Origin: a virus
Taxonomy: Duplodnaviria; Heunggongvirae; Uroviricota; Caudoviricetes
Length of the DNA: 7,698 nucleotides
Strand: one strand, 5' to 3'
IMG/VR virus record: IMGVR_UViG_2734482594_000023
Shown: one piece after another, positions 1 through 7,681 of the stretch
How positions within the stretch are numbered: the first letter of the stretch is position 1
Layout of the letters: every line of letters begins with the position of its first letter
Translations under genes and position numbers: made by a program
The notes under the pieces: generated by a model
The model's database searches: none
The model's input: only the letters and a program-made list of their open reading frames with translations
What the model was told of the DNA's origin: nothing

Positions 1-459
1 TTATTCAGTCGGCAGTGCTACGCGCCAGGGGAGCAGTTCGCCGACCCGGTTTATCGGCCAGTCGGCTATGACGTCAAGGACATAGCGGAGGTAGCTTTCT
101 GGCTCCACTCCGTTCAGTTTGCACGTCCCGATCAGGCTGTACAGCAGCGCTCCCCGCTCTCCTCCATGATCCGAACCGAAGAACAGGTAGTTTTTGCGGC
201 CCAGACTGACCATCCGCAACGCATTTTCAGCGATGTTATTGTCCGCCTCAGCCCAGCCATCATCTGCATAGTACGTCAGCGCCGGCCACTGGTTCAGGGC
301 ATATGCGAACGCTTTCGCCAGTTCTGAGTGTCGCGACAGGGTTTTCATCTTTTCACGCAGCCAGCTTTCCAGGGATTTCAGCAGCGGTTTCGTTTTCAAC
401 TGACGTTCGGCAAGGCGCTGTTTCAGCAGGAAGATGTCGTCAGAAGAGATGTCGTTCAT
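1..459 (-). CDS. IS66-family transposase, C-terminal fragment (truncated remnant)
   Basis: The 152-aa ORF carries the conserved C-terminal block of IS66-family transposases (...DNNIAENALRMVSLGRKNYLFFGSDHGGERGALLYSLIGTCKLNGVEPESYLRYVLDVIADWP...ELLPW). The upstream in-frame sequence hits a stop at 520-522, so the N-terminal two-thirds of the transposase and the other IS66 genes are absent on this side. Confidence 0.8.
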   Translation of the reverse strand: MNDISSDDIFLLKQRLAERQLKTKPLLKSLESWLREKMKTLSRHSELAKAFAYALNQWPALTYYADDGWAEADNNIAENALRMVSLGRKNYLFFGSDHGGERGALLYSLIGTCKLNGVEPESYLRYVLDVIADWPINRVGELLPWRVALPTE

Positions 460-677: not shown

Positions 678-1415
678 TCATTCACTCTCTTTCAAACCAG
701 TTTTAACTGTTTGTGGTTTTGGGTAAGGCTGGACTTTGAATAGCTTTGTGTTAAGGCGTTTTCTGGCTCTCTTGTCCAGAAACCGGATGTAACGAAACTG
801 ACGGAATTTATGAACACTGGCTCTGTCGATATTAGCCCGCAGATGTTCACCTCGCTGTCCTCCTCGTTTGATTGCATTCTTGCAAATCTCGTGATACCAC
901 TCGCCATCAAGTTCATAGAATGTTGTTTCATGACTGCCTACATAATCAAAATTGCTTGCCTGGTACACGACACCAAGACAGCCACAACGCTCATCTGCAA
1001 ACGACTGAACCCACTGCACCTGCGGATAAAGTTGTCTGATTAGTTTGAGCGCGTAACTGATTGCCCTTGATTCGGAGTTTCTCGGCATACAGTCATGCAG
1101 CCATAACCGGTTAAGCTCCATATATTCGCGGTTCTGCGTGCCAGTTACGACGCGTGCACCATTGTTTGGATTAAGGGCATAACCCCATTGCATTACGCCA
1201 ACCAGCTCCCGTTCTGAAAATATGCCCAGATGAAGGTAGGAATTATTTACGAAACGATGGCTGTAATGTTTATTGACGACGACCAGCCGGGCCAGCCAGC
1301 AACTTATTGTCTCAACCCGTAACTCACGGGAGCCATAACCGACGATATTGTCGTTATAGTGAATAAGTTCAGGCGTGCTGATGATACGGGATGTAACTTG
1401 CTTTCTGTTCCCCAC
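678..1415 (-). CDS. mom: Mom-family DNA modification protein (adenine carbamoylmethylation, acyltransferase-like); start codon uncertain
   Basis: The ORF lies immediately downstream of, and overlapping, a Com-type zinc-finger gene, as in phage Mu. The proposed GTG start at 1415 gives 245 aa, close to Mu Mom (about 231 aa as I recall), has AAGGAAA 7-9 nt upstream, and sits in the 3' arm of a hairpin. The ORF track extends to a GTG at 1610, which I regard as over-extended; an ATG at 1577 is an alternative. Confidence 0.75.
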
Positions 1416-1569
1416 GACAGGATTTCCTTGTGTATGTGGGGTGCTCTGTGGCGCTCTGAGATGTGATTTGATTGAGGGTTTTACAGCGCGGACATTTAAC
1501 TTCCAGATAACTGAAGCTGGCTCGTGCCAGTAGCTTGTTACAATGTCGGCACCGTATGTTTCGATACAT
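1369..1569 (-). CDS. com: Com-family zinc-finger translational activator of mom
   Basis: The 66-aa product [33 protein letters not shown]... has a CxxC...CxxC zinc-finger layout like Mu Com. AGGAGG lies 10 nt upstream of the ATG at 1569, and the 3' end overlaps the mom start region by about 46 nt. The track's TTG start at 1614 is rejected. Confidence 0.8.
1410..1441 (-). promoter_or_regulatory. mRNA hairpin sequestering the mom GTG start, with the Shine-Dalgarno in the loop (putative Com-responsive translational operator)
   Basis: On the minus strand, CCCCAC (1441-1436) pairs with GTGGGG (1415-1410). The 20-nt loop contains AAGGAAA, and the GTG at 1415-1413 lies in the 3' arm. Confidence 0.45.
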
Positions 1570-1610
1570 GGCCGCATAACCTCCTGCTTTGTTGTTGATA
1601 TCTTTATCAC

Positions 1611-1702
1611 TCAATCGATCGACAAAAACGATCGATTTGATTTATTTAATTGATACAACAAATAACACGAAATGTCATTAGCGAAAATTTATGAGTTTGA
1701 TC
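1611..1702. promoter_or_regulatory. AT-rich divergent control region upstream of com/mom with clustered Dam (GATC) sites and an inverted repeat
   Basis: GATC occurs at 1617-1620, 1630-1633 and 1699-1702. The imperfect inverted repeat TCAATCGATCG-ACAAAAA-CGATCGATTTGA spans 1611-1640. In Mu, mom transcription is controlled by Dam methylation of upstream GATC sites (OxyR binding) and by C-protein activation. Confidence 0.4.
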
Positions 1703-1825: not shown

Positions 1826-2119
1826 ATGGACAATCATGTAACGACGAGAAATCGAAAAATGATTGAAAATGCGGAAATCTATAATGATTATTTTTCCGAT
1901 TATTCAGATGCCTGCAAATACAGTTCGAGTGCGGGAGAGTTCATATGCTTCAACTTTTTTATTAAATCTTATGTTTTTCCTCCACAGCAAGAAGATGGAG
2001 GTGTGCCACCTCCTGAAATCACTTTGCACCGTATAGCCTCCGTCTCAATGATGGAGCAACAGGCTAATGAGCTGTATAGCATTCTGGGAACGATTCTACA
2101 AAAGCGTGAATCGGACTAA
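1826..2119 (+). CDS. Hypothetical protein, 97 aa (low-GC orphan gene)
   Basis: ATG at 1826 is preceded by AAGAGG at 5-nt spacing and the frame is open for 97 codons. The gene is AT-rich compared with its neighbours and divergent from com/mom. I recognise no motif. Confidence 0.5.
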   Translation: MDNHVTTRNRKMIENAEIYNDYFSDYSDACKYSSSAGEFICFNFFIKSYVFPPQQEDGGVPPPEITLHRIASVSMMEQQANELYSILGTILQKRESD

Positions 2120-2903: not shown

Positions 2904-4440
2904 TTACGCGTTATTCACTTCCACCACGATACTGTCAATCAGTACCGGGTAAGTCGCATTTTTAGTGATATCGGTCACGCGCAACTTGTCTGCCGTAAAC
3001 GTGCCGACCGGAGACTGCGACAGCATGAATGGTGTCCCGTCCTTACCATCAANNNNNNNNNNNNNNNNNNNNNNNNNNNNNNNNNNNNNNNNNNNNNNNN
3101 NNNNNNNNNNNNNNNNNNNNNNNNNNNNNNNNNNNNNNNNNNNNNNNNNNNNNNNNNNNNNNNNNNNNNNNNNNNNNNNNNNNNNNNNNNNNNNNNNNNN
3201 NNNNNNNNNNNNNNNNNNNNNNNNNNNNNNNNNNNNNNNNNNNNNNNNNNNNNNNNNNNNNNNNNNNNNNNNNNNNNNNNNNNNNNNNNNNNNNNNNNNN
3301 NNNNNNNNNNNNNNNNNNNNNNNNNNNNNNNNNNNNNNNNNNNNNNNNNNNTGAGCCTTGCCACCTCCGGCAGCCCAACCCTGTGGTGTCAACCGTCCTT
3401 CAGACTCAGATGCCCGGTAAGCAAATAGCGTACTCATCGTCGTGGTGTCTGCGGGTGGCGTGGACGGTTTTGATGGTGTATCAGGTGACGGCTTCTCATC
3501 CGGTGGTGTCACGGTCTGCCCACGCATCAGTTCAGCCGTGCGCCCTGCATGGAGCATAATAGCTGAGGCCAGACGGTCTGAAATGACGCCCCTGCGTGCC
3601 CATGAGCTGAAATGGCTGTCACGCTGTGTCGAAACAAAACTGCCCTGGGTTCGGGATGCTGCACCGTAATACCCGACAGCCACAATATCCGGGTCTTCCG
3701 CCGGAGCATTCGTTGGCGTGCNNNNNNNNNNNNNNNNNNNNNNNNNNNNNNNNNNNNNNNNNNNNNNNNNNNNNNNNNNNNNNNNNNNNNNNNNNNNNNN
3801 NNNNNNNNNNNNNNNNNNNNNNNNNNNNNNNNNNNNNNNNNNNNNNNNNNNNNNNNNNNNNNNNNNNNNNNNNNNNNNNNNNNNNNNNNNNNNNNNNNNN
3901 NNNNNNNNNNNNNNNNNNNNNNNNNNNNNNNNNNNNNNNNNNNNNNNNNNNNNNNNNNNNNNNNNNNNNNNNNNNNNNNNNNNNNNNNNNNNNNNNNNNN
4001 NNNNNNNNNNNNNNNNNGCGGTCAAACGAATCCGGTAACGGCAGCCCCTCGCCGTAGGCCATGCCATTTGACTGACCCGCGAGAATGACAACAAAGTAAT
4101 ATTCCGGCTCTGAACTGCTGCCATTCGTGCTACCGGAAGGCCCGGCGTTATCCGGTGCATTCCAGTCGGAGGGCGTGAGCGTTCCGGCCACGTCAGATGT
4201 GATTGGAATGATGCCAGTCACGCCTGAACTGGTGATTTCTGCACTGGGATTACCGGATACCGGCATTACCCATAATGGCTCTTTCGTGCTGAAGCGGATC
4301 ACGCAGTCTGCGAAGGTGATCCCCCCTTTATTACCCGAAGGGCGGAAAGGGCTTTCAATAAATGCCACCGTGCCACCGGCAACCTTGACTGAAAACTCTC
4401 CGGGCATGGCGGAGAGCATTTTCCACTTGGAGTCTGACAT
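2904..4440 (-). CDS. NanS-like sialate O-acetylesterase (SGNH/SASA-type) with an N-terminal extension and a C-terminal Pro/Thr-rich linker plus extra domain; frame ambiguous across masked blocks
   Basis: The N-terminal part (4440->4018) contains YYFVVILAGQSNGMAYGEGLPLPD, the GQSN nucleophile block of SASA/NanS esterases. After the mask, TNAPAEDPD...GYYG...SHFSSWARRGVISDR continues the esterase in a different frame, followed by TPPDEKPSPDTPSKPSTPP and a C-terminal region ending at the TAA at 2904. The span (1537 nt) is not a multiple of 3, so either a frameshift lies in 3722-4017 or the masking is not length-exact. Confidence 0.65.
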
Positions 4441-4516
4441 CGTCTTTTCTGCCTGTTTCTGAATTAAACAGAGTCAGAATAGCGACCGCTGAAAAATATG
4501 TGTTTTGCGGAAATTC

Positions 4517-4544
4517 AAAAAAGCGTCACGGTACTTTTGGTGAC
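4517..4544 (-). terminator. Weak hairpin plus U-run at the invertase stop codon
   Basis: On the minus strand, GTCAC (4544-4540) pairs with GTGAC (4529-4525) across a 10-nt loop, followed by GCTTTTTTG. The stem is short. Confidence 0.25.
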
Positions 4545-5136
4545 GGAGCTGGTGAGGCAGGAAAATAACGATAAAGGNNNNNNNNNNNNNNNNNNNNNNN
4601 NNNNNNNNNNNNNNNNNNNNNNNNNNNNNNNNNNNNNNNNNNNNNNNNNNNNNNNNNNNNNNNNNNNNNNNNNNNNNNNNNNNNNNNNNNNNNNNNNNNN
4701 NNNNNNNNNNNNNNNNNNNNNNNNNNNNNNNNNNNNNNNNNNNNNNNNNNNNNNNNNNNNNNNNNNNNNNNNNNNNNNNNNNNNNNNNNNNNNNNNNNNN
4801 NNNNNNNNNNNNNNNNNNNNNNNNNNNNNNNNNNNNNNNNNNNNNNNNNNNNNNNNNNTTGTCCGTAATGCTGCGGAAGTTAACGCCGCGTTGCCGGAGT
4901 TCTTCTGTTAAAAGGACAAGGTGCTGCATACTGCGTCCAAGGCGATCCAGTTTCCAGACCAGCAGGGTATCCCCTGGCCGGAGTCGCTTTAATGCGCGTT
5001 TAAGTCCGGGACGCTCCCTTGTCTTACCGCTTATTCTGTCTTCGAAAAACAGCTCACATCCTGCACATTCCAGCGCATTTCTTTGTAGCGCCGTATTCTG
5101 GTCATTTGTTGACACCCTGATATACCCAATCAGCAT
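4526..5136 (-). CDS. Site-specific DNA invertase, serine recombinase (Gin/Pin/Cin/Hin family); C-terminal frame differs from the ORF track
   Basis: The N-terminus MLIGYIRVSTNDQNTALQRNALECAGCELFFEDRISGK...LLVWKLDRLGRS is a canonical resolvase/invertase catalytic domain. Left of the mask, the frame reading LYRYFPASPAPSPKVP* (stop at 4528-4526) matches the Hin-type C-terminal helix-turn-helix tail (STLYRYFPAS). The track frame ending at 4474 is rejected. The span is not a multiple of 3 if the masked block is length-exact. Confidence 0.8.
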
Positions 5137-5430
5137 NNNNNNNNNNNNNNNNNNNNNNNNNNNNNNNNNNNNNNNNNNNNNNNNNNNNNNNNNNNNNNNN
5201 NNNNNNNNNNNNNNNNNNNNNNNNNNNNNNNNNNNNNNNNNNNNNNNNNNNNNNNNNNNNNNNNNNNNNNNNNNNNNNNNNNNNNNNNNNNNNNNNNNNN
5301 NNNNNNNNNNNNNNNNNNNNNNNNNNNNNNNNNNNNNNNNNNNNNNNNNNNNNNNNNNNNNNNNNNNNNNNNNNNNNNNNNNNNNNNNNNNNNNNNNNNN
5401 NNNNNNNNNNNNNNNNNNNNNNNNNNNNNN

Positions 5431-5613
5431 TATATCCAGGATATCAGGCTGGGAGCAGAGAACAGGCAGGTAATGTACGGTGGGGCATATTACTCTGCGT
5501 ACGGTAATGTTATGGCAGGCCTGCAGATTGACAGTAAAGTTGATGCTTCAAACGATTTTATAGCATTCAGACCCCTGCAAAAATTAGTCGGAGGTACATG
5601 GATTACGGTATCT
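5431..5613 (+). CDS. Alternative tail-fibre C-terminal tip (S'v-type variable exon), 5' end masked
   Basis: The frame is open from the mask edge to the TAA at 5611-5613: ...GAENRQVMYGGAYYSAYGNVMAGLQIDSKVDASNDFIAFRPLQKLVGGTWITVSQL*. Its tail shares the RPLQ..L..G.W.T motif with the minus-strand fibre tip (...[22 protein letters not shown]). Confidence 0.6.
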
Positions 5614-7123: not shown

Positions 7124-7681
7124 TCATGGCTNNNNNNNNNNNNNNNNNNNNNNNNNNNNNNNNNNNNNNNNNNNNNNNNNNNNNNNNNNNNNNNNNNNNN
7201 NNNNNNNNNNNNNNNNNNNNNNNNNNNNNNNNNNNNNNNNNNNNNNNNNNNNNNNNNNNNNNNNNNNNNNNNNNNNNNNNNNNNNNNNNNNNNNNNNNNN
7301 NNNNNNNNNNNNNNNNNNNNNNNNNNNNNNNNNNNNNNNNNNNNNNNNNNNNNNNNNNNNNNNNNNNNNNNNNNNNNNNNNNNNCGAGGGCTTCATCCGG
7401 TATTTATTTCCGGCATAACGCTGTCGCTCCGTGAGGGTGGCTCCGGCCATATCACACTCGGGAAGCCCGAGATAACGCTCCCAGTCTTCCAGCAGCAGGC
7501 GCGACGTGTCAGGGAAACGCTCGGCAAGCAGCTGTTTACCCGTCCAGGATACACGCGCTGTCGAATGACTGAGGCCCAGACATAATGATGCCAGTACGGA
7601 TGACGGACGCTTGTCCCATGCCAGCCCGTCAGGCAGTAACTGCAACAGGGCGCGCTGATGCGGGGTCAGGGTTACAGCCAT
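7124..7681 (-). CDS. Phage baseplate/tail protein (P2 gpI / Mu gp48-like, DUF2313-type); C-terminal half masked
   Basis: ATG at 7681 has AGGAGA 7 nt upstream. The N-terminus MAVTLTPHQRALLQLLPDGLAWDKRP...LLEDWERYLGLPE resembles the gpI/gp48 family. The gene sits directly upstream of the tail-fibre gene, as in P2 (I-H-G) and Mu (48-S-U). The TGA at 7126-7124 is in frame only if the masked block is length-exact. Confidence 0.65.
   Translation of the reverse strand: MAVTLTPHQRALLQLLPDGLAWDKRPSSVLASLCLGLSHSTARVSWTGKQLLAERFPDTSRLLLEDWERYLGLPECDMAGATLTERQRYAGNKYRMKPSXXXXXXXXXXXXXXXXXXXXXXXXXXXXXXXXXXXXXXXXXXXXXXXXXXXXXXXXXXXXXXXXXXXXXXXXXXXXXXXXXXXXXP

Follow-up and report, generated by a model that had tools for sequence, protein, structure and literature searches.

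The locus raised two linked questions: at which codon the DNA-modifying enzyme Mom begins, and whether its start is held closed in the messenger as it is in phage Mu. In Mu, the GUG start codon of mom is held in the stem of a translation-inhibition hairpin (TIS), and the Com protein binds an adjacent hairpin and activates translation (PMC6483171). The DNA analysed was a stretch of 7,698 nucleotides of the Caudoviricetes record IMGVR_UViG_2734482594_000023 (hereafter, the window). A sequence-only reading of the window had proposed that a GTG is the only plausible mom start near the expected length, that this GTG pairs into a 6-bp stem with a Shine-Dalgarno sequence in its loop, and that the Mu mechanism would be reproduced here. 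All the positions given below are those of the window, unless another locus is named.

The com-mom locus

The minus strand of the window was identified as the right end of a Mu-like E. coli prophage, with 72% identity to phage Mu over mom. Prophages 90-100% identical to it were found in 233 of 5426 complete E. coli genomes. The com product was assigned to the Pfam family PF10122 (Zn_ribbon_Com, E = 7.5e-13) and shares 45% identity with Mu Com, both CxxC pairs being kept. The mom product matched PF25680 (Mom, E = 7.8e-78) over its full length and is 77% identical to Mu Mom (alignment A1); the protein collection contained 1544 Mom homologues, mostly of 230-245 aa. The two genes are read in different frames, and the com stop at 1369 lies 44 nt beyond the mom GTG. 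For com, the CDS agrees with the PGAP annotation of a locus (L003) whose sequence matches the queried 451-nt com-mom junction (window 1250-1700) at 100% identity. The label given to Com by PGAP is "DNA-binding transcriptional regulator", though Com is an RNA-binding translational activator. The features of the junction are listed in Table 1.

Table 1. Coordinates of the com and mom genes and of the RNA elements at their junction
Feature	Position	Strand	Description
com	1369..1569	(-)	66 aa, ATG at 1569, stop 1371-1369; zinc-ribbon translational activator
mom	678..1415	(-)	245 aa; other frame than com; 47-nt overlap with com
mom start GTG	1413..1415	(-)	In frame with mom; fully paired with C1436, A1437 and C1438
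Translation-inhibition hairpin (TIS)	1410..1441	(-)	5' arm CCCCAC 1441-1436, loop 1435-1416 (20 nt), 3' arm GUGGGG 1415-1410
Shine-Dalgarno-like AAGGAAA	1423..1429	(-)	In the TIS loop; gap from AGGA to GTG of 9 nt
Putative Com-binding hairpin	1441..1454	(-)	Stem GCGC 1454-1451 / GCAC 1444-1441, hexaloop CACAGA 1450-1445
Match to the Com recognition motif, CCACAGAG	1444..1451	(-)	Fits 5'-CC(N)2-3GAG-3' (CC-N3-GAG; CC-ACA-GAG)

Three GATC sites (1617, 1630 and 1699) are clustered within 1613-1702, just upstream of com, in a window where GATC is rarer than expected (11 sites found, 23 expected). A GATC-bearing palindrome of 9 bp (AATCGATCG...CGATCGATT) occupies 1613-1637; it had been returned as a predicted terminator, a call that was rejected, and the promoter and terminator scan of the minus strand near com-mom yielded nothing relevant. 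A similar GATC arrangement is present upstream of com in Mu (RefSeq record NC_000929, here L001, 520-552). The mom promoter region of Mu is controlled by Dam and OxyR, and the GATC cluster upstream of the window com presumably resembles that region.

The right end of the prophage apparently lies at about 550 (...GCCGCGCTATA), as judged from the annotated end of a Mu-like insertion in LC727881 (L002 2980). Beyond this end, positions 1-459 (minus strand) encode an ORF of 152 aa, so the insertion site differs from those of the L002, L003 and L004 copies. An ORF of 97 aa (1826-2119, plus strand) is divergent from com-mom and lies between the mom operon and the DUF826/DUF1378 genes; its RefSeq counterpart is a shorter CDS of 86 aa, annotated as a hypothetical protein (L003 782-1042). 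Several stretches are masked with N (~3050-3360, 3720-4040, 4590-4860, 5135-5460 and 7130-7400), within the tail-fibre and invertase genes (the latter gin-like, 4474-5136), and ORF calls in these stretches are unreliable.

The mom start codon

The GTG at 1415 was confirmed as the only plausible start, being the sole in-frame ATG, GTG or TTG between the ATG at 1577 and position 1235. The same GTG was chosen by PGAP in L003 (WP_000528246.1, 245 aa) and likewise in a locus that is 94% identical, and the N-terminus read from it aligns with the homologue N-termini MGKxxKSR. With the upstream stops described below in agreement, the start that had seemed ambiguous from the letters of the window is resolved: Mom begins at GTG 1415 and has 245 aa, an assignment that is already right in RefSeq.

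A longer protein of 299 or 310 aa, beginning at ATG 1577 or GTG 1610, would turn GTG 1415 into an internal valine codon and the hairpin into an internal mRNA structure. For such a protein speak the mom frame, which in the window is open up to 1610, and an AGGAGG (1585-1580) that precedes ATG 1577; this AGGAGG, however, leaves a gap of only 2 nt to ATG 1577 and is the one used for the com ATG (1569). Initiation at the equivalents of 1577 or 1610, positions that the sequence-only reading had kept in view, is excluded in 17 of the 28 close relatives with an identical hairpin, where an in-frame stop lies 84 nt upstream of the GTG and there is no other start. Moreover, the homologues are of ~230-245 aa with N-termini that align at the GTG where PGAP also begins Mom, and Mu Mom has 231 aa from the equivalent GUG. 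The longer forms are therefore considered highly improbable.

The residues of Mu Mom are numbered 1-231 (PMC7261163), and this numbering fits the GUG in the Mu TIS (L001 758-1453). The GUG is also the start given in the literature, unlike that of the RefSeq record NC_000929, in which Mom is annotated at 728-1453 (241 aa) from an ATG 30 nt upstream.

The hairpin over the mom start

The stem CCCCAC/GTGGGG was read directly on the minus strand, where 1441-1436 are complementary to 1415-1410, and AAGGAAA was found in its loop, both as the sequence-only reading had described them. Folding of the region 1380-1480 had been put forward there as a check; ViennaRNA returned the stem in every stretch folded (101, 56, 51 and 36 nt). 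The isolated hairpin has a predicted energy of -12.6 kcal/mol (z = -2.26; 8 of 200 shuffles fold equally well) and is more stable than the Mu TIS hairpin (-9.5 kcal/mol). In its 101-nt context z is only -0.42, and the fold by itself is just moderately unusual. Perfect 6-bp stems enclosing 3-25 nt number 86 on the minus strand of the window, and 15 of these have 5 or more G-C pairs. Upstream pairing of the start codon has a probability of 1.00, versus 0.33 in dinucleotide shuffles, and none of 100 shuffles reached the observed value. A 6-bp stem alone is within chance; its position on the start codon exceeds chance, and its conservation (see below) adds to this.

In the minimum-energy fold, a further helix (ACA/UGU and GG/CC) forms inside the loop and pairs the GG of the Shine-Dalgarno sequence (G1427 and G1426 with C1421 and C1420). 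This inner helix was rejected as a conserved feature, as it is absent in the relatives L110 and L111. As the whole TIS hairpin is part of the com coding sequence, translation of com must also melt it. Scanning 1200-1800 against Rfam with E values up to 10 returned only sub-threshold chance matches (IS102, 21 bits versus 46; snR107).

A putative Com-binding hairpin on the 5' side

The recognition motif of Com, obtained by SELEX and SHAPE, is 5'-CC(N)2-3GAG-3' in a hexaloop closed by a C-G pair (PMC6483171). A match to this motif was found in a small hairpin that adjoins the TIS stem on its 5' side; this hairpin, the second component of the Mu mechanism, had gone unmentioned in the sequence-only reading. 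Its hexaloop is closed by C1451-G1444, and its stem contains one C-A mismatch (1453/1442), which is repaired to U-A in the relative L089. In alignment A2 (see below), the hairpin falls on the Mu hairpin AUGC[CUGCGA]GCAU; among the 17 relatives, both-side changes were seen in 4 of 4 pairs and 95.6% of cells are paired. Thermodynamically it is weak (-1.7 kcal/mol, in a different register), and its Mu counterpart reaches only -2.4 kcal/mol. In all 53 distinct junctions compared below, the 70 nt preceding the mom start contain a Com motif (0.16 expected from shuffles). The second CC-N3-GAG copy, which in Mu lies over the 5' arm of the TIS, is absent in the window, so Com may act somewhat differently here.

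One nucleotide, C1441, is common to the Com hairpin (partner G1454) and to the TIS stem (partner G1410). Against its 5' partner, this column reads A-U in 8, G-C in 7 and G-U in 2 of the 17 sequences, and it also covaries with its 3' partner. Covariation with both alternative partners suggests a toggle between Com-bound and inhibitory conformations; C1441 could be such a one-base toggle, or the pattern could merely reflect two lineages that differ at three sites.

Alignment with the phage Mu element

Alignment A2 was made with MAFFT from 17 distinct gamma-proteobacterial junctions, with no structural input. The stem of the window falls column for column on the Mu TIS (CCCAC/GUGGG), in the comparison with the Mu com-mom initiation region that had been put forward as a check; the Mu sequence at the corresponding place is CAUCCCAC-GGAGAAACAUU-GUGGGAAAAG. 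The Shine-Dalgarno sequence of the window aligns with the GGAG in the Mu loop. Four of the TIS pairs in this alignment are invariant and one changes from C-G to a U-G wobble. The sixth pair varies on both sides: 9 sequences have U-A (the Mu type), 7 have C-G (the window included) and 1 has U-G. All TIS cells are paired (100%), versus 34-62% after the 3' partners had been slid by 1-3 columns, and the 5-bp core of the stem, being invariant among the gamma-proteobacterial relatives, is without covariation signal.

Conservation of this core could be partly explained by coding in two frames. Read in the com frame, the Pro codon ends in a paired base, which is C in 17 of 17 sequences; the Thr codon that follows ends in the first base of the loop, where G, A, C and T all occur. 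A synonymous site that is fixed where it is paired, next to one that is free in the loop, points to a constraint at the RNA level.

com-mom junctions beyond the Mu group

For a wider comparison, 160 loci were fetched, and a zinc-ribbon Com ORF was found upstream of mom in 102 of all loci. The comparison used 53 distinct junctions, from Enterobacterales, Desulfovibrionaceae, Rhodospirillales and others, in several bacterial phyla; the frameshifted loci L046 and L159, in which mom is broken just after its start, were dropped. Mom starts were assigned by the N-terminal motif [YH]HP[PA] and not by structure, and in L056 and L062 the start was moved by hand to an ATG two codons upstream. An alternative rule, by which the start was the closest in-frame one lying 42 or more codons ahead of the HYS motif, was discarded, as it gave wrong starts for about 10 distant loci. 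Of the two dropped loci, L159 carries 9 A (GTGGGAAAACAAAAAAAAATC) in a run that counts 6 in Mu, and in L046 a single A is added. These loci could be pseudogenes, sequencing errors or slippage-prone tracts.

Across the 53 junctions, the mom start is paired upstream with a mean probability of 0.85, versus 0.38 in shuffles, and in 35 of them at most 5 of 100 shuffles reach the observed value. The anti-start triplet follows the start codon: GUG is matched by CAC in 26 junctions, AUG by CAU in 7 and UUG by CAA in 2, with wobble variants in addition (examples are GGCCAUGG/CCAUGGCC in L036 and GCCCAAGAG/CUCUUGGGC in L035). In 31 of the 53 junctions, a copy of the Com motif includes two or all three of the bases paired with the start codon; the window belongs to the type with an upstream copy only. 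Overlap of com and mom is the rule among the relatives.

Pairs were also counted in a crude alignment made with MAFFT from 27 distant loci (A4). In the upstream hairpin (for example GGGC[CACGA]GCCC), 92-100% of cells are paired and all four pairs have both-side changes; for the TIS, where 61-65% of cells are paired, this crude alignment is less clean. The overall share of paired cells is 73.9%, versus 68.5% in shuffles (none of 500 reaches the observed value) and 38-48% when the partners were slid. A further MAFFT alignment, of the Mu group with the distant loci (A3), aligned the Mu upstream motif and not the TIS arm, and was excluded from the counts. In the distant loci, the second residue of Mom is a conserved Ala (MA...), and its place matches that of a GGC paired with GCC in the stem.

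Alternative explanations of the hairpin

Translational coupling would give the hairpin a different role: ribosomes translating com would unwind it, and initiation on mom would need com translation in cis, with little or no part for the Com protein. That the whole hairpin lies inside the com ORF speaks for coupling, and the 47-nt overlap of the two genes, the prevalence of such overlap in relatives and the lack of a Com motif inside the TIS arm of the window, unlike in Mu, point the same way. However, com ends 60-65 nt before the mom start in several distant loci (L039, L040, L056, L059 and L062) in which hairpin and motif persist, and both the Com motif and its own hairpin, for which coupling alone has no need, are conserved and covary. 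Com reportedly acts in trans in Mu, according to work of Wulczyn and colleagues from 1989, which also counts against coupling. Binding of Com to this region of the Mu com-mom RNA has in addition been shown in vitro (PMC6483171), and coupling without Com is regarded as unlikely.

We give rather less credence still to the idea that the stem is a by-product of the overlapping frames (Com ...EHPT...CRG..., Mom VG...) with no regulatory role. Its 5-bp core, invariant in the 17 gamma-proteobacterial sequences, does code for conserved residues in both frames, and 6-bp stems are common in the window; but among synonymous sites the paired ones are fixed or covary and the neighbouring one in the loop varies, the start is still paired in distant loci whose sequences are unrelated and whose start codons differ, and the Mu counterpart is experimentally functional (PMC6483171).

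Proposed mechanism

The reading preferred here, to which we assign a probability of roughly 0.85, is that the window hairpin is the orthologue of the Mu TIS in a Mu-type Com/mom switch; by analogy with Mu, Com would bind, the stem would open and Mom would be produced as a result. The proposal that the Mu mechanism is reproduced held up in those parts that can be read from sequence, namely com overlapping mom, a stem on the columns of the Mu TIS and the same GTG start. In the free transcript, the mom GUG would be paired with the CAC of the 5' arm, and the weak Shine-Dalgarno sequence in the loop, perhaps partly paired itself, would lead to poor initiation by ribosomes on mom. Com, translated from the same transcript, would recognise the small hairpin 1454-1441 by its CC-ACA-GAG, and its binding would shift the RNA toward the form with an open TIS, as in Mu. 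Mom, a toxic DNA-modifying enzyme, would then be made late, only once Com has accumulated.

A broader reading is offered tentatively, as one that we find possible and yet somewhat doubtful: the Com switch would be an ancient two-hairpin module present across phyla, and the lineage of the window would have lost the embedded motif and rely on the upstream hairpin, with C1441 as a one-base toggle. In the commoner form of such a module, the Com motif contains the anti-start triplet, and Com may compete directly with the start codon for the same strand.

Significance

The element is orthologous to a regulatory structure that has been known since 1991; the switch is real but of a kind already understood, and the current understanding of the mechanism is unchanged. 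Judged by its sequence, the prophage has all parts of the Mu-style post-transcriptional safety catch on Mom, a toxic enzyme that modifies DNA, and the catch is apparently functional. The sequestration of the start and the Com motif are conserved, with covariation, far beyond the relatives of Mu, which gives comparative support to the 1991 model. The junctions also provide natural variants for the question of how Com opens the stem, since they differ in loop length, in the presence or absence of the embedded motif and in whether com overlaps mom or is separate from it. The TIS/Com-hairpin element is covered by no Rfam family, and the data assembled here would allow a covariance model to be made. 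No description of the phylum-wide conservation or of the start-codon covariation was found in the searchable literature, and a 2026 paper on Mom enzymology contains nothing on Com or the TIS; the conservation and the covariation are a modest by-product of the analysis.

Comparison with known systems

Translational control of com-mom in Mu, with a Com-binding hairpin and a TIS, was reportedly described in 1991 by Wulczyn and Kahmann and by Hattman and colleagues. The window shares with the Mu system the gene order, the overlap of com and mom, a 6-bp stem (CCCAC/GUGGG and a further pair) whose 3' arm contains the GUG, a purine-rich Shine-Dalgarno sequence in the loop, one nucleotide common to both helices and, directly 5', a 4-bp hairpin whose hexaloop is closed by C-G and carries CC-N3-GAG. 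The loop of the TIS has 20 nt in the window and 11 nt in Mu; the Shine-Dalgarno sequence is AAGGA at a spacing of 9 nt, versus GGAG at 7 nt; and the sixth pair is C-G, versus U-A. The Com hairpin of the window has a C-A mismatch, unlike that of Mu, and the second CC-N3-GAG, which in Mu extends over both the 5' arm of the TIS and the Shine-Dalgarno sequence, is missing from the window. Com has 66 aa in the window and 62 aa in Mu, and Mom has 245 and 231 aa, respectively.

The distant com-mom loci (L012-L080, from Desulfovibrio and other Desulfovibrionaceae, Azospirillum, Rhodospirillaceae and other Rhodospirillales, other Proteobacteria and others) likewise have a zinc-ribbon Com upstream of Mom, an upstream hairpin with the Com motif in its loop and a second hairpin with the mom start in its 3' arm. 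They differ in that the anti-start triplet lies inside a CC-N2-3-GAG motif, mom begins with ATG, GTG or TTG, some 10 nt separate the two hairpins and the overlap of com and mom is missing in some. With generic hairpins that sequester a start codon or a Shine-Dalgarno sequence, such as those of MS2 coat/replicase coupling and of RNA thermometers, the element shares an initiation region masked by local structure that must open; unlike in those systems, the opener would be a dedicated phage zinc-finger activator made from the same mRNA, which is the hallmark of the Mu system.
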